Source: an uncultured virus (IMG/VR IMGVR_UViG_3300017763_003721) (taxonomy: Duplodnaviria > Heunggongvirae > Uroviricota > Caudoviricetes). Taken from it: a stretch of 20,000 bases of DNA. The translations under genes and the position numbers were made by a program. The stretch is from IMG/VR virus record IMGVR_UViG_3300017763_003721, one strand, 5' to 3'. The notes under the pieces were generated by a model. That model did no database searches. It worked only from the letters and a program-made list of their open reading frames with translations, and was not told where the DNA came from. This document shows, in pieces, positions 2,238 through 16,377 of this stretch (positions are counted from its first letter, which is position 1; each line of letters begins with the position of its first letter).

Positions 2238-2717
2238 ATGGCATATTATTCAACTAAAACATACGGACACAACATCGGACTATCAGCGGTGTTCCGTCAA
2301 CCACATGCAGATCATTCACACTGTAGATTCTTGCATGGATATAGTTTGCAATTTAAATTTACATTTGGAGCAAGCGAATTAGATCATCGCAACTGGGCTG
2401 TTGACTTTGGCGGGCTAAAGCCTTTGAAAAAATGGTTAGAAGATACATTTGATCATCAAACAGTGATTGATGTGAACGATCCTATGAAGGACGATTTGTT
2501 ATTACTTGAAACAAAAGGACTAGCACAGATTACACAGCTTGATGGCGTAGGTGCAGAGAAGTTTGCTGAACATGCATGGGCATTTGCAGACAAACTTATA
2601 CGTGAAGGAACTGATAACCGTTGTTGGTGCGAGTCAGTTGAGTGTTCTGAACATGGTGCTAATAGTGCTATCTATACACCATACGAAGTTCAGAAGTTAA
2701 AATTTACAGATGGCTAA
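2238..2717 (+). CDS. queD: 6-carboxy-5,6,7,8-tetrahydropterin synthase / PTPS family (QueD-like)
   Basis: HSHCRFLHGYS, VDFGGLK, FDH, AEKFA and ECSEH motifs of T-fold PTPS/QueD enzymes; 159 aa. Confidence 0.85.
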   Translation: MAYYSTKTYGHNIGLSAVFRQPHADHSHCRFLHGYSLQFKFTFGASELDHRNWAVDFGGLKPLKKWLEDTFDHQTVIDVNDPMKDDLLLLETKGLAQITQLDGVGAEKFAEHAWAFADKLIREGTDNRCWCESVECSEHGANSAIYTPYEVQKLKFTDG

Positions 2718-3555
2718 AAAATATATTCCAGGCGAAACCAAAGCACAACGGAAGGCGAGGAAAAATGCTAGCAAGGGTATAACTCCAAGTGCCAACGCAC
2801 CTCAGTCCGAAGCTCGAAAGCCTGAAATATATAATGAACCAGATCCTAATAAAAAATACTATGTAGTTTGTTTAAAATGGGGAGACAAATACGGCCCTGA
2901 ATATGTAAACAAACTATATCATATGGTTCAGCGTAATTTAACTATCAATCATGAATTTATTTGCTTTACTGAACAACCAGCTAATCTAGTTCCAGGTATT
3001 CGAGTAATAGATTTAGAACTAATGCCTGGAATAGAAGGATGGTGGTACAAGCCCATGTTCTTTAATCCTAATTTAGGATTAGACGGTGTTGTATTGTTTC
3101 TCGATCTTGATATGATAATTTTTAAAAACATTAATAAACTATTTTCATACAAGCCAAACGAATTTATAATCATACAAGACTTTAATAGGCATGTTGTACG
3201 CAATTATGATAAATTTAATTCTAGTATTTTTAGACTAAACACTGGACAACATGCTCAAGTCTATCATGATTATATGGCAGATAAAAATAATATCAGTAGA
3301 AGGTTCCAAGGAGATCAAGATTGGATACGGCATTCAATAAAAGATGAATATAATTATTGGCCTGTAGATTGGATACAAAGTTATAAATGGGAAATGAGAG
3401 GAAAGCCTCAAATGACTGGAGGTCCAAGAGGTACTAGGGATTTTGTAACTAAAGGAGAACCTGCTCTCCTAGATGAAACATCTATTGCTGTCTTTCACGG
3501 AGATCCTAATCCACATTATTGTAAAGACGACTGGGTTCAAAGAAACTGGAAATAG
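2710..3555 (+). CDS. Glycosyltransferase, GT-A fold (GT8-like), with basic N-terminal extension
   Basis: VVCLKWGDKYGPEYVNKL, GWWYK, DxD motif (FLDLD), FNSS, GDQDWI and FHGDPNPH. Overlaps queD by 8 nt. Confidence 0.8.
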   Translation: MAKKYIPGETKAQRKARKNASKGITPSANAPQSEARKPEIYNEPDPNKKYYVVCLKWGDKYGPEYVNKLYHMVQRNLTINHEFICFTEQPANLVPGIRVIDLELMPGIEGWWYKPMFFNPNLGLDGVVLFLDLDMIIFKNINKLFSYKPNEFIIIQDFNRHVVRNYDKFNSSIFRLNTGQHAQVYHDYMADKNNISRRFQGDQDWIRHSIKDEYNYWPVDWIQSYKWEMRGKPQMTGGPRGTRDFVTKGEPALLDETSIAVFHGDPNPHYCKDDWVQRNWK

Positions 3556-3558
3556 TGG

Positions 3559-3587
3559 TTGACAACGATAAATAGGTGTGTTATAGT
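3559..3587 (+). promoter_or_regulatory. sigma70-type promoter (extended -10) for leader/tRNA operon, with nested late-type GATAAATA
   Basis: TTGACA 3559-3564, 17 bp spacer, TG-n-TATAGT (3582-3587). GATAAATA lies at 3567-3574 inside the spacer. Confidence 0.85.
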
Positions 3588-3612
3588 AAATACACAATAA
3601 GGAATTAGAGTA

Positions 3613-3678
3613 ATGAAGAACACAAGACAAATAATATCTAATATATGGTGCCCACCTTTTGGGAGGGGTTTGTTTTGA
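3613..3678 (+). CDS. Attenuator leader peptide, 21 aa (MKNTRQIISNIWCPPFGRGLF)
   Basis: SD TAAGGA at 3598-3603, ATG at 3613, TGA at 3676-3678. Codons 11-14 are ATA TGG TGC CCA, cognate to the four downstream tRNAs. The 3' end overlaps the antiterminator strand. Confidence 0.8.
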   Translation: MKNTRQIISNIWCPPFGRGLF

Positions 3679-3713
3679 TGTGATTTATTTACATTAAGTT
3701 TTAAACAAGCCCC
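3665..3713 (+). promoter_or_regulatory. Antiterminator helix (2:3) of attenuator
   Basis: GGGGTTTGTTT (3665-3675) pairs over 11 bp (one G-U) with AAACAAGCCCC (3703-3713), which includes the terminator 5' arm. Confidence 0.78.
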
Positions 3714-3737
3714 AAGCGAAAGCAAGGGGCTTTTTTT
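3707..3737 (+). terminator. Rho-independent terminator (attenuator 3:4 hairpin) immediately upstream of tRNA array
   Basis: AAGCCCC-AA-GC-GAAA-GC-AA-GGGGCTT followed by T-run (T7 at 3731-3737); ends 2 nt before tRNA-Trp. Confidence 0.88.
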
Positions 3738-3739
3738 AT

Positions 3740-3813
3740 GGGTGTGAAGTGTTACGGTAGCACGGCGGTCTCCAAAACCGTAAGCTGGGGTTCGACTCCC
3801 TACACGCCCGCCA
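3740..3813 (+). tRNA. trnW: tRNA-Trp (CCA)
   Basis: Acceptor GGGTGTG/CACGCCC, anticodon arm GCGGT-CT CCA AA-ACCGT (anticodon 3772-3774), TTCGA T-loop, G73 and encoded CCA. Confidence 0.93.
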
Positions 3814-3890
3814 CGGAGCATAGCACAGCTTGGTAGTGCGCCTGGTTTGGGACCAGGAGGTCGTAGGTTCGAATCCTACTGCTCCGACCA
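3814..3890 (+). tRNA. trnP: tRNA-Pro (TGG)
   Basis: Acceptor CGGAGCA/TGCTCCG, anticodon arm CCTGG-TT TGG GA-CCAGG (anticodon 3848-3850), A73 and encoded CCA. Confidence 0.96.
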
Positions 3891-3897
3891 ATTTTAC

Positions 3898-3974
3898 GGG
3901 CTCTTAGCTTAGTTGGTTAAAGCTGTCCGCTCATAACGGATCGATCGTTGGTTCGAATCCAACAGGGCCCACCA
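3898..3974 (+). tRNA. trnI: tRNA-CAT, most likely tRNA-Ile2 (lysidine-modified, reads AUA)
   Basis: Acceptor GGGCTCT/AGGGCCC with C4:G69, anticodon arm GTCCG-CT CAT AA-CGGAT (anticodon 3932-3934), A73 and CCA. Lacks initiator hallmarks (C1:A72 mismatch, three G:C pairs in the anticodon stem). Overall sequence resembles bacterial Ile2 rather than elongator Met. Confidence 0.85.
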
Positions 3975-3975
3975 G

Positions 3976-4049
3976 GAGGGTATGGCAGAATGGCTATGCA
4001 TCGGATTGCAAATCCGCTTATCTCGGTTCGACTCCGGGTACCCTCTCCA
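3976..4049 (+). tRNA. trnC: tRNA-Cys (GCA)
   Basis: Acceptor GAGGGTA/TACCCTC, anticodon arm TCGGA-TT GCA AA-TCCGC (anticodon 4008-4010), U73 discriminator typical of Cys, encoded CCA. Confidence 0.94.
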
Positions 4050-4058
4050 AGTTATTAG

Positions 4059-4087
4059 TTGACATATGAAACAATAGATAGTATAAT
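4059..4087 (+). promoter_or_regulatory. sigma70-type promoter for 2OG-Fe(II) oxygenase
   Basis: TTGACA 4059-4064, 17 bp spacer, TATAAT 4082-4087: perfect consensus. Confidence 0.85.
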
Positions 4088-4113
4088 TATATGTAAGCTA
4101 TGAGAGGATTCTG

Positions 4114-4731
4114 ATGTCAGAAGAATTAAAAATAACTGAAGTTACAGCTTTCCCTACATTGTTTTTAGGATTTGATTTAAGAGAATTGTATGACAAAGAC
4201 AAAGTAGTAGAAGGAGTAGACAAACTAATTACTCCTCATGGCTTAATAGAGAGCAAAAATGAAGGAGACGGTAGCACATGGGGCTCTTCAAGTTATTTGG
4301 AAGAACATCCTGAACTGACGAATCTTATGCAGAGATGTGTGGATGCATATGTAGAGAAGTTGAAGTTAGAACCTCTTGGAATTTGGAATAGCTGGATTAA
4401 CAAAGGAAGTCATGGTAGCAAAACAAATCCTCATCGGCATGAAGGCAGTGTAATCAGCGGTGCATTTTATCCTAAAATAGTAGGAGATAATCGAAATAGT
4501 CCACCTTTACAGCTTCATAGTCCACTAAAGCCTTATCATATGTCTACAATTTTTGTAGAACAAAACGAATATAATTCATATGTACAAGAAGTACCTGCAT
4601 GGGAAGGCATGCTATGGTTATTTCCTAGTTGGTGTGAACATAGTACAGCAATAAATTACACCGAAGCGAGATACTGTATTAGTTTTAATACCTATCCAAG
4701 AAAATTTGAATCGTTAAAAAAAGTTGACTAA
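4114..4731 (+). CDS. Putative 2OG-Fe(II) oxygenase (TIGR02466-like phage family)
   Basis: FPT near the N-terminus, SWIN, PHRH...ISGAFY, EGMLWLFPSWCEH and RYCISFN; SD GAGAGG upstream. Confidence 0.85.
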   Translation: MSEELKITEVTAFPTLFLGFDLRELYDKDKVVEGVDKLITPHGLIESKNEGDGSTWGSSSYLEEHPELTNLMQRCVDAYVEKLKLEPLGIWNSWINKGSHGSKTNPHRHEGSVISGAFYPKIVGDNRNSPPLQLHSPLKPYHMSTIFVEQNEYNSYVQEVPAWEGMLWLFPSWCEHSTAINYTEARYCISFNTYPRKFESLKKVD

Positions 4732-4752: not shown

Positions 4753-4794
4753 ATATAAACAATGGTAAAAGCAACTACAACATGCGGAGATTAT

Positions 4795-5871
4795 ATGAAT
4801 GCTACAAAACGCATAGGTTTTGCATGCAAGTACATGCATCCAGATCAAACACAGAAGAAGAAACTGCTAGAAGAAATTCAGCGTCCGCTAAATACTCGTA
4901 GCACTACTGTTCAATGGTTGAATAGACAAACTGTAGATGTTGCTGAAGAACGCTTGTGGGATATTATGGTCCACAATATTGCGTCATATGGAAGGCTAAT
5001 TGAATATGTGGGATCTCTTACTCCAGAACTTAGAATGGTCCGATTGGGTAGCGATGTACTTCCTGTTTATACCCAGCCTGACTGGTCTTATTTTTGGCGC
5101 AAGCCTGATGTGGTGGCGTACTGTGAAAAACACTTCGCAGAAGTTGGTAGACGAGCAAGAGAGCTCGATGTTAGACTCAGCATGCACCCAGGCCAATTTA
5201 CAGTCCTTGCTTCAGATAGTGAAGAAATAGTTGAACGTAGTATAGAGGAGTTTGAATATCATGTGGATTGTATCAGATGGATGGGCTACGGCCAACAATT
5301 CCAAGACTTTAAGTGCAACGTACACATCTCAGGTCGCCAAGGTCCAGCCGGTATCAAAGCCGCCCTCAAGCGACTCTCGCAAGAGGCGAGAAACTGCATC
5401 ACAATCGAAAATGACGAAAACAAATGGGGCATCGAACACAGCCTCGAACTTGCAGACGACCTCGCACTTGTACTTGACATACACCACCACTGGTGTCGTG
5501 AAGGAGAATACATCAGCCCAACCGACAATAGATTTGCTCGCGTAATAGATAGTTGGCGTGGTGTGCGTCCTGTAATACATTACAGCTACAGTAGAAACGA
5601 GCATTTGCCCGAAGGCTATGCACACGATACAATGCCTAGTATGAGTAGGCTACTAGAAGCAGGACACAAGAAAGCTAAACTTAGAGCTCATAGTGATTAC
5701 TATCCTAATCGTCTTGTAAATGATTATGCACTATCATTCTTAGACTATGCAGATATTATGTGCGAGAGCAAGTGTAAAAATCTTGCTAGTATCGAGCTAC
5801 ATAAATACTACACAGGAGAACAGTATGACATACTTGAACAAGATGTACGGTCGTTCAGCGCCGTCGCCTAA
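4795..5871 (+). CDS. uvsE: UV DNA damage endonuclease (UvsE/UVDE family)
   Basis: RIGFAC, RLSMHPGQF, IENDE, LVLDIHHH, IHYS, AHSDY and DIMCESKCK motifs. Start placed at ATG 4795 after GGAG; the longest ORF starts at 4762. Confidence 0.92.
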   Translation: MNATKRIGFACKYMHPDQTQKKKLLEEIQRPLNTRSTTVQWLNRQTVDVAEERLWDIMVHNIASYGRLIEYVGSLTPELRMVRLGSDVLPVYTQPDWSYFWRKPDVVAYCEKHFAEVGRRARELDVRLSMHPGQFTVLASDSEEIVERSIEEFEYHVDCIRWMGYGQQFQDFKCNVHISGRQGPAGIKAALKRLSQEARNCITIENDENKWGIEHSLELADDLALVLDIHHHWCREGEYISPTDNRFARVIDSWRGVRPVIHYSYSRNEHLPEGYAHDTMPSMSRLLEAGHKKAKLRAHSDYYPNRLVNDYALSFLDYADIMCESKCKNLASIELHKYYTGEQYDILEQDVRSFSAVA

Positions 5872-7578: not shown

Positions 7579-10500
7579 ATGGCAAAGCAAAATGTAGACA
7601 TTGGTGTAGAAGGTAATGACGGCACTGGTGATAGTATTAGAGAATCGTTTCGTAAGGTAAACGAAAACTTTACTGAACTGTATGCTGTATTTGGTATTGG
7701 TGGACAAATATCTTTTACAGATCTAAGTGATACACCGTCAACATATCAAGGTAACGAAAATAAAGTGCCTGCCGTTGCTGGTGATGGCAGTGGTATGAAT
7801 TTGTTACAACTTGCTTCTAATAATGCATTAGATGGTACTATTGATACTATTGGTTTTGATTACAGTGTAAGTGGAAAACTTATTATTAGACAACTTGTAT
7901 CCAAAGTGTCTAATGACCCAATACCTGTATTAGGTGGACCGTTAGATGCGGCAACTCAGCCAATTGCAAACGTAGCAGTAACGCAAGCAGCTATTGATAC
8001 ATTTAATGCTGTACACAATACACAGTATACAGTTTCAGACTTAGTTATTAACAAAGCGTATGCTGACAGCAATTATCAAACTAAAGACGTGCCAGGTGGC
8101 GGAATTAGATTAGCAGATGAGCCTAGTGATGCTTCAGCTTATACAATTACCATTACTAGTCTAAACTTAGGCAACATGATAGTTAATAATCATGGATTGC
8201 CTGGTTCATATACTGGTTCTCCTTTTGTTTGGACTTCAACTGGTACTGATCCTACAAATGTTACTACCGGTCAGCAATATTTTATAAGAGTTATAGATGC
8301 TAATACACTAAGCTTCCATTCTACATCAACAGGCGCAATTGCTGGAACTGGTAGACTATTAATGTCAGGTGGTTCAGGAACGTTTACTATTAGAGATGCT
8401 GCTTATGATTCTTCACTTAGTGGTAATTGGTTAAACAATGTAGCACTTCCTAGAAAATCAGTAGTACGTAGACAAGGTGATACAATGACAGGTGCTTTAA
8501 ACTTGTTTGATCATCCAGGCGAACTTTCAGGTAAAGGTACACCATATGGTCCAGATGACTTACAAGCAGTATCAAAACTATATGTAGACAATGTTGCGGC
8601 TACTAGTGATGTAAACATATTTGTTACTATGAAAGGTGATGACACACAACGCTTTACTCCAGATGGAAAGCAAGGTCGTGCAATTGGATATGCATACAAA
8701 ACTATAAATGCTGCATCAAGAAAAGCTGAAGAAATAATTATTTCGGCACCGCCTGAGCCAGGTCCGTATATGCAGACACTGACTTACAACACAGGTGTTA
8801 ATTTATCAACAATTAATACAGCAGGTATTACTTCACCAATTAGCGGTCGAACAAATGCTAGAACACTTATTATAAACAACAAAGAATTTGTTGCTAAAGA
8901 AGTTACAGCATACATGAATGCAACATATCCAGATCATGTAGGTGATTATAATGAAGAAGATTTTGAAAAGCGTATTGAAGAAATACTTGATAGTGTTTCT
9001 TTAGATTCTTTGTTAGGAAACAACGCAAACTTCTTATCTAGATATGCAGGTTTAACTTACTATGCAAGCGTTGAAGGCCAAACACTCATTGGTACACAAA
9101 AAACAGAAACAGTTGCAGGTATTACCTATGCTAAAAATATTGTTAAAAATTATATTTTAACAAACACAGCAGTACCAACAAGTTATCAAACACAAGTTAC
9201 ACAATTTATAAACGGTTCAATCACTCCAGATGCGACTGCTGACGATGCTATCGATGCAAAGTTTCAAATTGTATTAGATGTAATTAATAATGGAGCATTG
9301 AATGCTCCGCAAATTGTTGATGGTACAACGACCTATAAGATTAATGCAAACAATGGTAACTTTGGTTTCTTAGATCAAGCTAATCCAAACAACACAGATG
9401 TTATTCCTGGTAAAGTTATAAGAGGTAAAACATCTGGTGCTATCGGACTGATGGTAGATTATAAACACGAGTCTGGATCACGAGCAGTAAGTATTGCTAC
9501 TACAGACGAAATTGAACTACAATTATTAAAACCAATTGAATTTATACCAGGTGAAGAATTAGAATACGGTAACGTACAAAATGAAACACAGGTTGTAATT
9601 GTTGTTGAGTCAGGCATTTATGACGAAGACTTTCCAATTAAAGTTCCAAACAACGTTTCTATTAGAGGTGACGAGCAACGTAGAGTTATTGTAAGACCTA
9701 AGAATAGAATATCTCAATCAAGATACGCTGATACGTATTTCTATAGAGACGCTGAATTTGATGGTATGGTTCTAGGTGTTTCAGAAATAAACACACTTAG
9801 ATTTGAAACTCAAATTAATTCATCTAGAACAGCAGGAACCTACACTGTAACTAGTGCTAATATGACTACAAGCAATATTGGCACTGGAGCAACTTTAACA
9901 ATTATAATTGATAGTAATGGTGCAGTAACATCTGCAACTCCTACAGTAAAAGGTAAAAACTTTGTTAAAGAAGAATTAATTACTATTGAAGACTCTCAGT
10001 TAGGTAGTGGCGGCGCACCCGCAATTAATATTACTGTTGATACTATTCTTAATGGTGACGTGTATAAAAACCCGCTCACAGGAACATTTGATGGATACTT
10101 TGGTTATCACTATTTAGAAAAACCAGGAAGTTTAAAAAATATAGGCGCTGGTTACACTAACGTAGGAAACTGGGAAACATCGGCACTTACATTTATTGAC
10201 AACAAAGAATTTATTCAAGAACAGGTCGTAAACTATATTGAAACGACATATCCTTCATTGCCAGCAGGAGCAGTATATTCTAGGGCAAAATGGTTCGGTT
10301 GGACTGGACAAATAGTTGATGCTATTATAAAAGATTTAAGATTAGGTGGTAATGAATTTGTTTTGCAAGAGCAAGGCGACATTTACCAAGAAGGTTTAAC
10401 TAGTCCAAATCTAATTAGCAGTGTACATGACGAATGGGTAGCAGGTGTTGCACACATATACACAATGGCAAACAAATTGCTACAAGGACAAGCACCTAGT

Positions 10501-13500
10501 ACATTATACAACCAATCGGGCGGGACTGCAAGTGATAGAGTATATGCACAAGATTTAACTAATGGTGATTCTGCTCCAGCTACTTGGACTACAGGTAAAT
10601 TATACAAATTGCAAGATGTAGTTAAATTTACATCAGCAGGTGTTATAAGATATTATGTTCCAAAACTGCAACATACTTCTGGTGTTACATTTGATGCAAC
10701 AGAAATTGCAACATATTGGACTGAAATAGATACAATAGATACTACTATACTTAATTTTATAAACTCTGTAAACTTTGCATTTAATACATCTTACAATCCA
10801 CCTAAGCACAATAGAGATCAAGACGTATTTTTATTAAACGATGCTACTATTCTACGTAATATGACTGTGCAAGGTCATGGTGGATTTATGGGTGTGCTTG
10901 ATCCAGATGGACAAATACTTACTAAATCACCGTACATACAAACAGGATCTAGTTTTGCTGCAAGTTTAAACAAGCAAGCATTTAGAGGCGGACTATATAC
11001 AGATGCATTTGTAGGTAACTCAGCTATTCAAGTTACTGGCAGAGTAAGTAATGATCCTTTTACTCTAAATATTAAAAGTTTAGGATCACAATCACAACCA
11101 CAAGGGTTGTTTGTAAGAAAACCGCAAACTCCTTGTGCGTTTTACATTGATGGCAGAAGATTCCAAGTTAACGCAATTACAAATTATGATAAATCATTAG
11201 GAACAGCTATCCTTGTACTAGACAGAAGTTCAAATAGCGGTACAGGATTTACAGGCACTACTAGTGAACTTATTACAGGATTTAATCTTACACAAGTAGG
11301 AACATTTCAATTTGAAGTTGCTAAATGCGAAAGAGATACAGGTTATATTTTAGACGCTGTACAGTTTGATTTAGCACTTGGCACAAATTATAACGCGGTA
11401 ACAAACGGATTAGCATATCAACGTAACGTTGTAAGTACATACTTACAATCAAATCAAAAAGCACAAACTATTGCAGCTATCCAAGTTACTAAAGCTAAAA
11501 CTGCCGCACTATCAAGTGTTGCAGGTGACGCAACAGCATTATCAAGATCAAATGCTGCTTTCGATGAAATTATTGATATACTTGACAATGGTGCATTAGG
11601 AACTGAAACTGCTGCAGATACAATTACTTTCTCAGCACCGAGTGCATTACCTTACGCTAAGTCAGTAGAAGCACGTACAAAGCTACAAGAAAATAGAACA
11701 TTTTTAGGTGCAGAAGCAGTAGCATTTATTAATCTTAATAGTCCAGCACCAGGATATGATGAAGTTAAATGTGCTAGAGATGTAAGATTTATTATTGATG
11801 CTATTACTTACGATATCAACTACGGTGGTAATACTGCATCAAGACAAGCCGCACGTTCATATATTGATGATGGTGTAGCTGTATTAGCAGCAGCTGAAGT
11901 TACTCCAACAGTTAATGCAATGAATCATATTAAAGGATTATTGTCAGATATTGTAAACGGCGTAAGTTTTACTAAATCAACAGGCAACGCAGAAACACAG
12001 GTAACAGCAGGCTTAACAGCTGATGCTACTACAGCAACACAATTAGGTGTGTTGATTGATATTATAATCAATGTAATTCAAGCATCAAACTTAAACAGTG
12101 TACCAGCAATTGTTAAACCATCGATTACATGGGCAACAGCAGGACTACAAGCTGCACATGGTGCAATTGACACTAACAGAGCATTAATTATTAGGCAAAC
12201 TGTGCAAAGTGTTGCATCGCCGATCGACATTACACTACAAACAGCTGGTAACAGAAGTATGTTAGGTAATGACTTTACACAAATTAACGACTTGGGCTAT
12301 GGTCTAGTTGCTGTAAACGGTGGCATATCAGAAATGGTATCTATGTTTACATACTACTGTCATGTAAGTTACTATTCTAAAAACGGTTCTCAAATTAGAT
12401 CTTTAACAGGGTCTAGTTGTTACGGCGAATTTGGATTAGTTGCTGAAGGATCAGATCCAAACGAAATTCCAGACGCTGTATCTCTAGCAGAAGATATGGT
12501 TATGCCGGGCAAGATATTCTCAGCTTCAGTTATATTACAAACTACAGGACCTGTAGTTGGCGTAGCCGGCGAAACATTTACACAAGCATCAACAGGTGCA
12601 ACAGGTGTAGTTGTTATATCAACAGGTGCTAACGGTAATAGTCAAATTTATTTACGAGATACTACAGGAAGTTTCGACACAACAAACACAATTACAGGAA
12701 GCACCACAGGCGCATTAGGTGCTAACAGTGTACCCCTTTCAGTTGATGCAACAGGTTACACAAACGCAGCAGCTACAGCTTATATGTATGTGTATGATAT
12801 GAAAGATGTACCGTCAAACAGATCAGAATTTGATATCTATCATACTAATGCATCACCAAATGCTGTACTAGGAAGATACGAAGTAAGCAATGTAGAATTA
12901 GCTACTCCGCACCTGGGTGCATTTAATGGAGTAGGTGTAGGTGGCACACCGCCCATTACAGCAACACAGACCGTTGCAGAAGCTGGAGCTACTGGTGCAA
13001 GATTCCAAGTACGCAAAACAAAAACTGATGGATATACTGTTGTAATTAAAACACCAGGTACAGATTATAGAGAAAATGATACATTCTTAGTTACAGGTGA
13101 TAAGCTAGGCGGAGCAACTCCTGCAAACGATGCTACTATTACAGTAACACAAGTTGATGCGGGAGATAGTACTCCAAGCACAGGTGCAATAACAGGCGCA
13201 AGTATCTCGGGTACAGCTCTTACTACAACAGATGACACGCCAACTTACAGTGGAGCAGTTTATAAATTAAACTTCTCAACATCATCTGCACAATATGCAC
13301 AAAACGGTATTGTTGCATCTCCAACGCACAACGATCTTATAAACTATAGACGCAACGAAACACATATATTTAATGACTTAGCACAGCCAGATTTACTTAC
13401 TATTAGACCAAGTACTGCGGTATTGTTTAATGAGAATCCAGGAAACTTTTATAGATCAATATCATTTTTAACTAGCAACAGTTTAGGTACAACATTAGGT

Positions 13501-16377
13501 GCTAATAGTATCCAAGCAGGATTTGATAGTGGGTATGATTATATTAGATTAACTATCGATAATACTAGAGCAGCGGAAACAGCATTAAGCGGCACTGGAA
13601 CTACTAAAGGTGCAACAGCAGGTGATGTTAGACTAGCACTTCAAGCAGTAGCAGATGCTAACGAGAAATTTAGACTTAACAATAATGCAAGGACACCTGA
13701 AGCATACAGACCAGTAGGTTGGTCAACTTCGACGTTAACTGAAGCTCCAATTATTTCTTGGAAAGGTAAGAAACATTATGTTTACAACTATAGAGGTGTA
13801 ACAGGCGGAGGCGCAGAACAAGTATCAGCTTCAGATGATGTTTACGCTATTGTTGATCTAGCTGAAGTAGGAGAAACAATTAACTCTACTAATGCAACAG
13901 GTATACATGGCACAGTTGTATTGTCAGGGTTAACTAACACTATTAGAGCAGGTTTACAAGCAGGAGCAACAGGTACAGTTACAGTTAACATTTCAACTTG
14001 TAGAGCTACAGGACATGATTTCCTAGATATAGGTACAGGCGGCTTTAATGCATCAAACTATCCAAACTTTATATTTGGACCTCCTGGAGAGAAGAGTGAA
14101 GCTAATGAAGTTGTAGAAAAGAACAAAGGTAGAGTATTCTTTGTAAGTACAGATCAAAATGGTATTTTCAAGGTTGGTAAATTCTTCCAAGTTGACCAAG
14201 GTACTGGTACAGTTACATTTAGTGCAAGTATTGCACTTAGCGATGTTGACGGACTAGGATTTAAACGTGGTGTTGTTATTACTGAATTCTCAACAGATAC
14301 AGCAATGACAGATAATGCTTCAGACACAGTGCCAACCGAAGGTGCTGTACGGGGATATGTAAACAGACGTTTAGGATATGATGTTAATGGTACAGCAGTA
14401 AGTAACAAACTAGGACCAGGCGTACTTGCACCAAATGGTGTTGTACCAATGACGGGTGATTTAAATGCTGCAAGTAATACAATTACAAACTTAAAAGCAC
14501 CGGCACAAGATAGTGATGCTGCAACAAAGGTATATGTTGATAATATTGCTGGTTCTACATCAGTAGAAGATCTAAGAAGTTCTGAATACAATGACTATGC
14601 TTTAGGTAACTTGTTTGTTGCTACAGGCGAAAAGAAACTTATTATAAATGCAGGATCGATTGTAAGTGGACCGTTTGTACAAGGACAAACTATAAGTGGT
14701 AACAACAGTGGCGCCACAGGTACTATTGTTGACTTGAAAACTACAGTAGGTGTTGAAGGTAATGTTATTGAAATAACATACACTCCTGTTACAGGAACAT
14801 TCCAAGACGGATTGCCTGCAGGTAGCGGCGAATCACAAGATGTAGTAAGTGTTGTAGGTGGTGCTCAAGGTACCCTTGTAAAAGGCCCAATTGATGTTTG
14901 GGCAAATGGTATAACAACAGCAAATAGTGATATATCATTTACTCCATCCAGAAATAGAACAATTGTAGGCGGTGTTGTAACTGACAGACATGTAGACCTA
15001 GATGTTCAAATCAAAGTAGGCACTATTGTAAACGCAGATGTCAACGGTGCAGCGCAAATATCACAAAGTAAACTAGCAATGAATTCTGCTAGTACAAGAA
15101 TAAATGCAACAAATATAAGTCAAGCAGACTTGGGCGTTGTTGCTTTTGATAGCGATGTGTTTACTACAACAAATGGTTGGACTACAATATCAGATGGACA
15201 ACTTGATCTTAAGAAAATCAAACGTGTAAGTGACGGCACTGTGCTAGGTAACTGGAGTGGCGACAGCAGTGACAATGACATTGATGAAATATCATTTGCT
15301 ACAGTAGTTTCAGAAGGCGGCGGAATAGGTGATGCTGATTTGACTACAACAATAGCAGTAGGATCAGATCCAGGTGAAGCTGTAATTAAAACAGGCACAG
15401 GAACTTATGCTGTATCAAACGTTACTAAGACAGGTGAAGTAAACAGTATTATTAAAAGTGATCTAAACGGCAGTATACAAGTAAACTCATTAATACTTGG
15501 CGGTGATTCATCATACGAAATATTAGCACTAGATACTACGACAGTTATAATGAAAACACCTGCACAAGGTGAAATACTTAGATCCACAGGTACTACAGGT
15601 GTTAGTGCAAATGGTAAACCAGATTTATTAATTGCAGGTAGTGTTAATATAGACGGAACAGGTGTTGCAGAAAGTGTACTACAAGATGCTTCAAACTTTA
15701 ACGGTGAAGCAGTACTAGGTGTTGACTGGATCTACTCTAGCTTTATTGAAGCACCAGGCGAAAAAGGTGCAGCAAGTACAGCTATAGCAATTGGTGCTAA
15801 TACTGGTAAAACAGCGGCAGGACAAATAGGTATTGTGACAGCGGATAGTGCTACAACATCAAGTGTTGTACCATTTATCTTTAGCAGTAGCGGAGCAGTG
15901 CCAGATGTAACAAATGCATACGATATTGGTAGCTCAACATTTAAATACAAAGACATATATGCTACAACATTCTATGGTACTGCAACCGAAGCTTACTATG
16001 CTGACTTAGCAGAGAATTACTTAGCAGATAGTTTGTATGAGCCAGGCACTGTACTAGTTTTTGGTGGCGAAGAAGAAATTACAACAACAGAGATTAAAGG
16101 CGATAGAAAAGTTGCTGGTATTGTATCTACTAATCCAGCACACTTAATGAACTCAGCATTGTCAGGATTAAATGTTACTGCACTAGCACTACAAGGAAGA
16201 GTGCCTTGTAAAGTAATTGGCAAAGTTGAAAAGGGCGACTTGTTAGTTACTAGTGCAATCGCAGGCTATGCAATTGTTAATAATGATCCTAGTGTAGGTA
16301 CTGTAATTGGTAAGGCTGTAGGATCTAAACAAGATGGTGATCGTGGTATAGTTGAAATTGTGGTAGGTAAACACTAA
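7579..16377 (+). CDS. Giant tail fibre/spike-like virion protein (2932 aa)
   Basis: N-terminal T4 gp9/gp10-like motif (KQNVDIG..NDGTGDSIRESFRKVNENFTELY). Pectin-lyase-like beta-helix segments (SGIYDEDFPIKVPNNVSIRGD; SPYIQ; GNDFTQIND). Helical KCxRD repeats. C-terminal peptidase G2 / intramolecular chaperone-like domain (YADLAE...GIVSTNP...ALQGRVPCKV). Confidence 0.85.
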   Translation: MAKQNVDIGVEGNDGTGDSIRESFRKVNENFTELYAVFGIGGQISFTDLSDTPSTYQGNENKVPAVAGDGSGMNLLQLASNNALDGTIDTIGFDYSVSGKLIIRQLVSKVSNDPIPVLGGPLDAATQPIANVAVTQAAIDTFNAVHNTQYTVSDLVINKAYADSNYQTKDVPGGGIRLADEPSDASAYTITITSLNLGNMIVNNHGLPGSYTGSPFVWTSTGTDPTNVTTGQQYFIRVIDANTLSFHSTSTGAIAGTGRLLMSGGSGTFTIRDAAYDSSLSGNWLNNVALPRKSVVRRQGDTMTGALNLFDHPGELSGKGTPYGPDDLQAVSKLYVDNVAATSDVNIFVTMKGDDTQRFTPDGKQGRAIGYAYKTINAASRKAEEIIISAPPEPGPYMQTLTYNTGVNLSTINTAGITSPISGRTNARTLIINNKEFVAKEVTAYMNATYPDHVGDYNEEDFEKRIEEILDSVSLDSLLGNNANFLSRYAGLTYYASVEGQTLIGTQKTETVAGITYAKNIVKNYILTNTAVPTSYQTQVTQFINGSITPDATADDAIDAKFQIVLDVINNGALNAPQIVDGTTTYKINANNGNFGFLDQANPNNTDVIPGKVIRGKTSGAIGLMVDYKHESGSRAVSIATTDEIELQLLKPIEFIPGEELEYGNVQNETQVVIVVESGIYDEDFPIKVPNNVSIRGDEQRRVIVRPKNRISQSRYADTYFYRDAEFDGMVLGVSEINTLRFETQINSSRTAGTYTVTSANMTTSNIGTGATLTIIIDSNGAVTSATPTVKGKNFVKEELITIEDSQLGSGGAPAINITVDTILNGDVYKNPLTGTFDGYFGYHYLEKPGSLKNIGAGYTNVGNWETSALTFIDNKEFIQEQVVNYIETTYPSLPAGAVYSRAKWFGWTGQIVDAIIKDLRLGGNEFVLQEQGDIYQEGLTSPNLISSVHDEWVAGVAHIYTMANKLLQGQAPSTLYNQSGGTASDRVYAQDLTNGDSAPATWTTGKLYKLQDVVKFTSAGVIRYYVPKLQHTSGVTFDATEIATYWTEIDTIDTTILNFINSVNFAFNTSYNPPKHNRDQDVFLLNDATILRNMTVQGHGGFMGVLDPDGQILTKSPYIQTGSSFAASLNKQAFRGGLYTDAFVGNSAIQVTGRVSNDPFTLNIKSLGSQSQPQGLFVRKPQTPCAFYIDGRRFQVNAITNYDKSLGTAILVLDRSSNSGTGFTGTTSELITGFNLTQVGTFQFEVAKCERDTGYILDAVQFDLALGTNYNAVTNGLAYQRNVVSTYLQSNQKAQTIAAIQVTKAKTAALSSVAGDATALSRSNAAFDEIIDILDNGALGTETAADTITFSAPSALPYAKSVEARTKLQENRTFLGAEAVAFINLNSPAPGYDEVKCARDVRFIIDAITYDINYGGNTASRQAARSYIDDGVAVLAAAEVTPTVNAMNHIKGLLSDIVNGVSFTKSTGNAETQVTAGLTADATTATQLGVLIDIIINVIQASNLNSVPAIVKPSITWATAGLQAAHGAIDTNRALIIRQTVQSVASPIDITLQTAGNRSMLGNDFTQINDLGYGLVAVNGGISEMVSMFTYYCHVSYYSKNGSQIRSLTGSSCYGEFGLVAEGSDPNEIPDAVSLAEDMVMPGKIFSASVILQTTGPVVGVAGETFTQASTGATGVVVISTGANGNSQIYLRDTTGSFDTTNTITGSTTGALGANSVPLSVDATGYTNAAATAYMYVYDMKDVPSNRSEFDIYHTNASPNAVLGRYEVSNVELATPHLGAFNGVGVGGTPPITATQTVAEAGATGARFQVRKTKTDGYTVVIKTPGTDYRENDTFLVTGDKLGGATPANDATITVTQVDAGDSTPSTGAITGASISGTALTTTDDTPTYSGAVYKLNFSTSSAQYAQNGIVASPTHNDLINYRRNETHIFNDLAQPDLLTIRPSTAVLFNENPGNFYRSISFLTSNSLGTTLGANSIQAGFDSGYDYIRLTIDNTRAAETALSGTGTTKGATAGDVRLALQAVADANEKFRLNNNARTPEAYRPVGWSTSTLTEAPIISWKGKKHYVYNYRGVTGGGAEQVSASDDVYAIVDLAEVGETINSTNATGIHGTVVLSGLTNTIRAGLQAGATGTVTVNISTCRATGHDFLDIGTGGFNASNYPNFIFGPPGEKSEANEVVEKNKGRVFFVSTDQNGIFKVGKFFQVDQGTGTVTFSASIALSDVDGLGFKRGVVITEFSTDTAMTDNASDTVPTEGAVRGYVNRRLGYDVNGTAVSNKLGPGVLAPNGVVPMTGDLNAASNTITNLKAPAQDSDAATKVYVDNIAGSTSVEDLRSSEYNDYALGNLFVATGEKKLIINAGSIVSGPFVQGQTISGNNSGATGTIVDLKTTVGVEGNVIEITYTPVTGTFQDGLPAGSGESQDVVSVVGGAQGTLVKGPIDVWANGITTANSDISFTPSRNRTIVGGVVTDRHVDLDVQIKVGTIVNADVNGAAQISQSKLAMNSASTRINATNISQADLGVVAFDSDVFTTTNGWTTISDGQLDLKKIKRVSDGTVLGNWSGDSSDNDIDEISFATVVSEGGGIGDADLTTTIAVGSDPGEAVIKTGTGTYAVSNVTKTGEVNSIIKSDLNGSIQVNSLILGGDSSYEILALDTTTVIMKTPAQGEILRSTGTTGVSANGKPDLLIAGSVNIDGTGVAESVLQDASNFNGEAVLGVDWIYSSFIEAPGEKGAASTAIAIGANTGKTAAGQIGIVTADSATTSSVVPFIFSSSGAVPDVTNAYDIGSSTFKYKDIYATTFYGTATEAYYADLAENYLADSLYEPGTVLVFGGEEEITTTEIKGDRKVAGIVSTNPAHLMNSALSGLNVTALALQGRVPCKVIGKVEKGDLLVTSAIAGYAIVNNDPSVGTVIGKAVGSKQDGDRGIVEIVVGKH

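Follow-up and report, generated by a model that had tools for sequence, protein, structure and literature searches.

Transcription attenuation by leader peptides is known from the trp, his, leu and phe leaders of Escherichia coli and Salmonella and from the multivalent thr and ilv leaders. Phage transfer RNA (tRNA) genes are usually viewed as constitutive cargo, which either fixes a mismatch in codon usage or replaces tRNAs destroyed by defence systems. Here we describe a block of four tRNA genes in a stretch of 20,000 nucleotides (nt), hereafter the window, of the uncultured virus IMGVR_UViG_3300017763_003721. The block is preceded by a promoter, a 21-codon leader open reading frame (ORF) and an intrinsic terminator. 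We interpret this arrangement as a translation-coupled (trp/his-type) transcription attenuator, which gates the phage tRNA block as a sensor of tRNA supply, and we put the probability of this reading at roughly 60%. The phage would then probably make these tRNAs mainly when ribosomes read their codons slowly. The case rests on a conserved family of loci with alternative RNA structures, and on one clean association between leader codons and tRNA cargo.

Each structural feature of leader-peptide attenuators that could be tested is present at the locus. As in the amino-acid attenuators, there is a promoter-proximal mini-ORF with a Shine-Dalgarno (SD) sequence and with regulatory codons near its middle, mutually exclusive 1:2, 2:3 and 3:4 helices, an intrinsic terminator just before the regulated genes, and a stop codon positioned so that a terminating ribosome masks segment 2. 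The candidate sensing of several different codons at once has its likeness in the thr and ilv leaders. The amino-acid attenuators control enzyme genes, whereas here four tRNA genes are controlled, and their output would feed back directly on the sensed quantity. Classical members of the class control amino-acid biosynthesis genes, so that the present element is a variant in what is controlled. Further differences are its location on a phage genome, the single Trp and Cys codons, and a start codon that takes part in the closing helix.

Two other systems are close. In pheST, the cognate-codon-rich leader pheM attenuates a component of the decoding machinery and not a biosynthetic enzyme, as we propose here, but it controls synthetase rather than tRNA genes, lies on the chromosome and takes one amino acid as its input. 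T-box riboswitches also respond to the state of tRNAs by a choice between terminator and antiterminator ahead of translation-related genes. However, they bind the tRNA directly and have no ORF, and no T-box match was found here. In the literature searched, with subscription journals lying outside it, we found no account of tRNA genes, phage or cellular, that are attenuated through a leader peptide. A passage of PMC3082878 deals with pheL frameshifting and has no bearing on this question.

The tRNA unit of the window

An earlier note on this DNA, made from the sequence alone, had described the promoter, SD sequence, leader ORF, terminator and four tRNA genes, and our analysis returned all of them at the same positions (Table 1). 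The leader ATG sits 26 nt past the -10 element. The terminator has an inner 2-bp GC stem with a GAAA loop and ends in a run of seven T (3731-3737), and the four tRNA genes scored 56-70 bits against the Rfam tRNA family.

The promoter ranked as the second-best promoter-like site between 2500 and 5500. Promoter-like sites as a class were at chance level in this region (11 found vs 9.6 expected), and the weight of this promoter comes from its conservation in relatives, which keep a TTGAC -35 element and a TATAAT-like -10 element. The terminator, which was missed by a simple terminator scan, also gains weight because it is conserved. The promoter is the sole promoter-like site on the + strand from the upstream gene to the promoter at 4059. 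The earlier note had named a separate tRNA start downstream of the terminator as evidence that would speak against its reading, and the promoter scan found no + strand promoter-like site between 3587 and 4059. As the T run ends at 3737 and tRNA-Trp starts at 3740, with no promoter between them, the tRNAs would be transcribed only by readthrough of the terminator.

In the leader (MKNTRQIISNIWCPPFGRGLF), ATA is found at codons 7, 8 and 11, and TGG, TGC, CCA and CCT follow as codons 12-15, so that codons 11-14 provide one codon for each tRNA. The chance of four such consecutive codons in the 18 windows of a 21-codon frame was 1.9e-5 under the codon usage of the phage and 1.3e-4 when computed from base composition; the earlier estimate of 3e-5 is of the same order.

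The assignment of ATA to a tRNA of the block depends on the gene with the CAT anticodon, which is probably tRNA-Ile2. It is not initiator-like, and its sole match in 5,426 E. coli genomes was an annotated tRNA-Ile (80.6% identity). The sequence gives the pairs G1-C72, C4-G69, U12-A23 and C29-G41, of which we take C4-G69 and C29-G41 to be Ile-type identity pairs, following E. coli rules. In tRNA-Ile2 the CAU anticodon is modified with lysidine and reads AUA. The way in which ATA codons track this tRNA across the family (see below) fits the Ile2 identity.

One contig from an oligo-dT RNA library (run X1) was identical over its 151 nt to positions 3784-3934 of the window. It covers tRNA-Pro together with the 3' end of tRNA-Trp and the first part of the CAT tRNA, and could stem from an unprocessed polycistronic precursor or, equally, from DNA carry-over.

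A family of related loci in uncultured marine phages

Relatives were collected by three routes. Starting from the upstream gene, 60 of the 80 kept related loci were scanned for a tRNA block (L062-L081 were left out), and a single one had it. The array of this locus, L002 (75% identity), is Trp, Tyr, Pro, CAT, Cys; ahead of it stand the same promoter, a leader of 19 codons (MRQAIWLFYIWCPAQLGLS) and a terminator that differs in sequence. An anchor placed within tRNA-Trp gave 40 loci, with Trp first in 11, four of which had the leader. Finally, a pattern scan that combined only the motif of the 5' untranslated region (UTR) and the stop-codon motif, the core codons not being part of the pattern, matched 9 viral and 59 metagenome loci.

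A recognisable leader ORF was present in 52 of the 68 pattern matches, or 53 loci when the window is counted. With L183, one further locus whose leader ORF has a 1-nt insertion, the family comprises 54 loci from uncultured marine phages. Another 15 matches, with no promoter, leader or tRNA, were dropped as chance hits. All 54 loci have the promoter, the leader, the terminator and tRNA-Trp, and together they contain 26 distinct leader sequences. The first tRNA after the leader was Trp in every locus with enough downstream sequence, except in L153, where Cys precedes Trp. The flanking motifs and the TGA are conserved by design of the search; this does not apply to the frame, the core codons, the terminator or the tRNAs.

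The leader of the window had no match among cultured phages of the GenBank collection, and for a main-clade leader the tRNA part alone was matched there. Between 3000 and 4600, Rfam gave no family besides tRNA (E up to 1). No comparable leader-terminator module was found in the other tRNA clusters of the related phages, or in five gaps of unrelated arrays containing tRNA-Trp.

Signs of translation in the leader

We aligned 28 distinct regulatory regions, from 45 of the 53 loci, after exclusion of five cut by contig ends, one with N, and three without an exact TTGACA. The distance from ATG to TGA was only 60, 63 or 66 nt in all 28. The flanks were not restricted to steps of three: the 5' UTR measured 53, 59, 60, 61 or 67 nt and the spacer 26, 28, 29 or 30 nt, with length changes of 1, 2, 6 or 7 nt. 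Some of the 3- and 6-nt indels of the ORF fall in the loop that separates the Pro codons from the G run and whose length the RNA structure leaves free.

The codons of the core also varied in a way that retained their content. TGG TGC in the clade of the window corresponds to TGT TGG in the main clade, a difference of two substitutions that leaves one Trp and one Cys codon in each. Given this exchange of W-C for C-W between the clades, it is the codon content that was kept, and not the order. Synonymous variation was found at the core codons as well (TGC/TGT and CCA/CCG/CCT).

Three alternative RNA structures

The leader RNA forms a strong fold (-39.6 kcal/mol, z = -3.2), and three mutually exclusive structures are conserved in it: a helix between the start and stop regions, an antiterminator and the terminator. 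All 28 aligned regions share one ground state, with the start:stop closing helix, two inner helices, a small A/U hairpin and the terminator; one of the inner helices pairs the CCnCC of the Pro codons with the G run.

On the alignment, this termination-state structure was 92.6% paired and 11 pairs had changed on both sides, which none of 500 column shuffles reached; with the partner strand slid, pairing fell to 35-51%. The terminator helix was 97.6% paired in the 28 sequences, with three compensatory pairs. The start:stop helix, present in the minimum-energy fold of every relative, is formed by differing 5' strands (GTCACAGAC, TTCAAGAC and GTCAAGTAC) that match a nearly invariant 3' strand, and it too has compensatory changes. 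In the "NWPP" variants, a Thr-to-Ile and a Cys-to-Asn change together make up a double compensatory change in one inner helix.

The same nearly invariant 3' strand can alternatively pair with the 5' arm of the terminator, which gives the antiterminator. The antiterminator of the window reached -23.2 kcal/mol, compared with -12.6 +/- 3.0 for dinucleotide shuffles (z = -3.6; 4 of 1000 reached it), and its terminator had -14.7 kcal/mol. On the alignment the antiterminator was 93.5% paired, vs at most 64% when slid.

The claim of the earlier note that the architecture is of the trp/his type held up in this comparison: it is conserved in the 54 loci, with frame-preserving indels, compensatory pairs, and an antiterminator possible in 28 of 28 regions.

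Position of the ribosome and choice of structure

To follow the switch we folded only the RNA 3' of the ribosome, with the edge of the ribosome placed 13 nt past the first base of the codon in the aminoacyl (A) site; this offset is an assumption from general footprint knowledge. Folding with the footprint forced unpaired was set aside, as the flanks paired across the ribosome, which is not physical.

The minimum-energy fold of the window was the antiterminator with codons 11-14 (ATA, TGG, TGC, CCA) in the A site, and the terminator from codon 15 through the stop codon. Because the fold flips at codon 15, the four matched codons are the final ones at which a stall still prevents termination in these folds. 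The TGA (3676-3678) falls within the strand 3665-3683 of the antiterminator, and a ribosome with this codon in its A site left the downstream RNA to fold as the terminator.

When the ribosome was placed at the Trp codon and the RNA was folded as it stands before the 3' arm of the terminator, the antiterminator formed in 28 of 28 relatives (-15 to -24 kcal/mol). Terminator energies across the relatives ranged from -14.7 to -20.2 kcal/mol. For RNA of this length the last productive stall codon was W in 11, P in 14, C in 2 and G in 1 of the 28.

Leader codons and tRNA cargo

For the cargo count we used the 37 distinct loci whose downstream sequence extends to 400 nt or more. Behind the leader we found tRNA-Trp in 37, Pro in 21, Cys in 16, CAT in 4, Ala in 3, Ser(tga) and Tyr in 2 each, and Glu and Ser(gct) in one each. 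A TGG codon accompanied tRNA-Trp in all 37. Upstream of the leaders there were 46 tRNAs, for Thr, Leu, Gly, Ser, Asn, Gln, Glu and Ala, plus an odd call with a four-base anticodon, and Trp, Pro or Cys was not among these 46. By these counts, the core residues C, W and P correspond to the three commonest tRNAs behind the leader, which are found only there.

The cleanest association was between ATA codons and the CAT tRNA. Both were present in four loci and neither in 33, and no locus had only the codon or only the tRNA. Of the Ile codons in leaders with the CAT tRNA, 10 of 10 were ATA; in leaders without it, ATA made up 0 of 53 (51 ATT and 2 ATC). A fifth case, L182, was left out of the count, its contig ending 268 nt past the leader. 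It has a leader of the main clade (MIKTISICIICWPPEGGMS) in which four codons have turned into ATA, followed by tRNA-Trp and then a CAT tRNA that belongs to another sequence family than that of the window. With a main-clade leader and a distinct CAT tRNA, the ATA/CAT pairing arose in two independent lineages.

A weaker trend was seen for Cys, where six of the seven distinct loci whose leaders have no Cys codon had no tRNA-Cys after Trp. Among the 37 loci, the tRNAs for Tyr, Ser(UCN), Ala and Pro had no significant association with matching codons. The earlier note had proposed that the leader senses exactly the tRNAs that it precedes, and had named co-variation of leader codons with the anticodons across arrays as a check. 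The match is exact in the window and co-variation is found for ATA with the CAT tRNA. It does not extend to a rule for the family, as Trp-only arrays keep Cys and Pro codons, co-variation is weak for Cys, and it is not significant for Tyr, Ser and Ala.

Proposed mechanism

The layout of the unit, its conservation, the competing pairings and the switch geometry are established by the sequences and folds above. From them we infer that the leader is translated, that ribosome stalling decides on readthrough, and which codons are effective. Host RNA polymerase would start at the promoter and a ribosome would load on the 21-codon leader. A fast ribosome arriving at the TGA would cover 3661-3688, which includes the 5' strand of the antiterminator; the terminator would then form and transcription would stop 3 nt before tRNA-Trp. 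With no ribosome on the leader, the start:stop helix (3620-3632/3668-3681) would tie up the same strand, again leading to termination. A ribosome slowed at ATA, TGG, TGC or CCA (codons 11-14, or ATA at codons 7-8) would leave the strand 3665-3683 free. This strand could then pair with 3689-3696 and 3703-3713, take the 5' arm of the terminator and allow readthrough into the genes for tRNA-Trp, -Pro, -Ile2 and -Cys. Family-wide, the stall codons would be ATA, TGG, TGC/TGT or the first Pro codon. Since the products are the tRNAs that read the stall codons, the loop would be self-limiting, topping up decoding capacity where it is scarce. Trp would be the universal input and ATA the best supported additional one, and the Cys and Pro inputs are likely, though entangled with constraints of the RNA structure.

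Evidence weighed and competing explanations

Several observations weigh against an attenuator that senses tRNA supply through its leader codons. Some concern translation. In L183, one extra G past the Trp and Pro codons shifts the frame, which stays open to a second TGA 5 nt downstream, in the conserved TTGACGTGAC motif that has TGA in two frames; this insertion reflects an error in sequencing or else a variant that is tolerated. In 27 of the 28 relatives the final fold has the start codon base-paired, which fits a non-coding RNA too. The Trp and Cys codons of the leader are single, with no tandem runs. The RNA runs (4 of 23) gave low-depth contigs only, and none over 3552-3764.

Other points concern the structures. 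At equilibrium and with the full terminator, the antiterminator won at the core codons in only 2 of 28 regions (the window and L171), and in most relatives the terminator won at every position. The model therefore depends on the order of synthesis, with the antiterminator made first, as in the classical systems. Covariation in the antiterminator was almost nil (two pairs, reached by 24 of 500 shuffles), because both of its strands barely vary, and the candidate antiterminator rests on conservation and pairing potential.

A last group concerns codons and cargo. In 9 of the 37 arrays the only tRNA is Trp, yet the leaders retain Cys and Pro codons. Cys codon and tRNA-Cys occurred together in 15 loci, the codon alone in 15, the tRNA alone in one and neither in 6 (p = 0.11). 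The Tyr, Ser and Ala tRNAs had no significant association with their codons. TAT is present in 32 leaders without tRNA-Tyr, including L163, which has a leader of the L002 type. The Pro codons (CCnCC) and the TGT/TGG codons sit inside helices, so that a structural role could account for their conservation. Because the loci come from metagenomes and are related to each other, the counts are not independent. Furthermore, L088/L112 have a tRNA-Trp (at 885) about 40 nt behind a similar GTGGTTGACA promoter, without a leader or a terminator. This tRNA-Trp opens with the same bases as that of the window and is followed by Glu, Ser and more, which suggests that leader and terminator were inserted as an additional module between promoter and tRNA.

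The earlier note had also named, as evidence that would speak against it, relatives which keep the tRNAs without the leader frame or matching codons. The frame is kept, with L183 as the exception; the matching codons are kept only in part.

Part of this evidence would suit an attenuator with a single input, in which the Trp codon alone is sensed, in keeping with the tRNA-Trp at the head of the array, and the matches of the window for Cys, Pro and Ile come from structural constraints and shared ancestry. TGG and tRNA-Trp occur together in 37 of 37 loci with the remaining array variable, and the C/W/P core persists in the nine Trp-only arrays. The CCnCC and TGT/TGG codons lie inside helices P3 and P2, and 11 of 28 relatives have no productive stall site beyond the Trp codon. 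A Trp-only sensor does not explain why ATA occurs only with the CAT tRNA in two independent lineages, with four codons changed in L182, or why the swap from W-C to C-W retained a Cys codon. Trp, Pro and Cys are moreover the commonest tRNAs behind the leader and never occur upstream, and six of seven distinct loci without a Cys codon have no tRNA-Cys after Trp. We consider a Trp-only sensor rather improbable.

We hold it just as improbable that the region is a structured non-coding RNA, or a leaky constitutive terminator setting a fixed low level of tRNA, with the ORF incidental. The strength of the leader fold (-39.6 kcal/mol, z = -3.2) and the paired start codon in 27 of 28 folds would be expected of such an RNA. 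The 3' half (GGGG...TTGAYGTGAY) is also more conserved in its nucleotides than the coding 5' half, the RNA-run contigs gave no usable cover of the leader, and the equilibrium folds favour the terminator in most relatives. On the other side, the ORF changes length in steps of three and the flanks do not, even in the loop whose length is free of structure, and both the SD sequence and the ATG are retained. A fixed terminator needs no conserved strand complementary to its 5' arm. The association of ATA with the CAT tRNA has no non-coding explanation, and the leader region had no Rfam match.

All 26 distinct leaders encode W followed by P or C-P. This would also fit an arrest peptide, in which a W-P-P or W-C-P nascent chain (polyproline relieved by EF-P, or free tryptophan sensed as by TnaC) controls the terminator, in place of tRNA supply. 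Ribosomes do stall at Pro-Pro motifs, and the action of TnaC depends on conserved W and P residues. The residue order was not kept (W-C-P vs C-W-P), however, and Pro-Pro is missing in L127, L128 and L176. A ribosome that stalls on a main-clade leader with the second Pro codon in its A site would already cover the GGGG of the antiterminator and favour termination, and the ATA association would be left unexplained, which makes an arrest peptide very unlikely. Least probable of all is a T-box-like riboswitch that binds uncharged tRNA directly with UGG as its specifier codon: it would account for the choice between terminator and antiterminator and for a UGG displayed near a helix junction, but there is no T-box or other Rfam match besides tRNAs (E up to 1, 3000-4600), the leader has about 150 nt, the frame-preserving indels point to translation, and the antiterminator bulge AGUUUU (3697-3702) has no UGGN, which we take from T-box anatomy to be the site for the tRNA 3' end.

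Genomic surroundings and further observations

The window lies within an IMG/VR virus record of 30.5 kb, and no further tRNA was found in the remaining 10.8 kb. The neighbours of the tRNA block are phage auxiliary genes (Table 1). The nearest cultured relative of the glycosyltransferase-like protein was from Pelagibacter phage Mosig, with 38% amino-acid identity. In this phage, 116 of 347 Ile codons are ATA.

Table 1 Features of the tRNA unit and of its surroundings in the window.
Feature	Coordinates	Strand	Details
QueD-like gene	2238-2717		
Glycosyltransferase-like gene	2710-3555		
Sigma-70-type promoter	3559..3587	+	TTGACA-17-TATAGT with TG extension; 11/12 matches
Shine-Dalgarno-like sequence	3600..3604	+	AAGGA; 8 nt 5' of ATG; similar distance in relatives
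Leader ORF	3613..3678	+	21 codons + TGA, MKNTRQIISNIWCPPFGRGLF; ORF kept in 26 distinct leader sequences
Candidate regulatory codons	3631..3657	+	ATA ATA 3631-3636; ATA TGG TGC CCA CCT 3643-3657
Predicted anti-antiterminator hairpin	3620..3681	+	3620-3632/3668-3681; inner pairs 3635-3638/3647-3650 and 3651-3656/3661-3667
Predicted antiterminator	3665..3713	+	3665-3675/3703-3713, takes the whole 5' arm of the terminator; 3676-3683/3689-3696
Intrinsic terminator	3707..3737	+	7-bp stem AAGCCCC 3707-3713/GGGGCUU 3726-3732
tRNA-Trp (CCA)	3740..3813	+	ARAGORN; Rfam tRNA; starts 3 nt past the terminator T run
tRNA-Pro (TGG)	3814..3890	+	ARAGORN; Rfam tRNA
tRNA with CAT anticodon, most likely tRNA-Ile2	3898..3974	+	ARAGORN; Rfam tRNA
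tRNA-Cys (GCA)	3976..4049	+	ARAGORN; Rfam tRNA
Next promoter	4059..4087	+	TTGACA-17-TATAAT; 12/12; serves the 2OG-Fe(II) oxygenase gene; ends the tRNA unit
2OG-Fe(II) oxygenase	4114-4731		
UV-endonuclease-like gene	4762-5871		
Tail-fibre-like ORF	7579-16377		2932 amino acids; PHROG tail-fibre-type matches over several parts

Some of the relatives had additional features around their tRNA genes. An extra element of about 95 nt was found between the terminator and tRNA-Trp in L130 (1660-1750), L124, L125, L128, L129, L131 and others. It has a long inverted repeat (ACTACACTA ... TAGTGTAGT) and is not present in the window; a similar AAAGATAGTGTAG motif recurs near other tRNAs of L130. This could be a processing element or a second regulatory element. 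After the leaders of L123 (1659-1743), L149 and L188, ARAGORN called an 85-nt 'tRNA-Trp(cca)' whose 5' sequence is unlike that of the common 74-nt form; an intron or a long arm may account for this variant, or the call may be wrong. Unusual tRNA calls were also made in L143, L146 and L164, about 226 nt upstream of the leader stop, as well as at 155-242 of L130 and elsewhere; such calls in the related phages include a tRNA-like gene with a four-base anticodon (taat) and a tRNA-Ser with anticodon ACT. L124 encodes a GroES-like co-chaperonin (MKIRPLHDRVIVRREEEEKK..., 259-545) between tRNA clusters.

Significance for phage tRNA supply

Beyond the locus itself, the family may represent an evolvable multi-input sensor of decoding capacity, whose codons are rewritten to follow the cargo, and with it a widespread on-demand supply of tRNAs and possibly an inducible counter-defence. 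We offer this wider view only tentatively, and think it more doubtful than the attenuator itself. If the attenuator is real, cleavage or depletion of host tRNAs would also switch such a circuit on; a role in counter-defence, as suggested by the earlier note, is compatible with the circuit, and our results neither support nor contradict it. The association of ATA with tRNA-Ile2 gives a clean prediction that can be tested.

If true, the finding would bring a new class of regulated genes under a textbook mechanism and give a sequence signature for locating regulated tRNA blocks in metagenomes. It would also provide a compact natural part of about 180 nt that reports the supply of specific tRNAs. 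For the phages, it would mean that they gauge the speed of decoding at particular codons and make the matching tRNAs as needed, a direct feedback on translation capacity.

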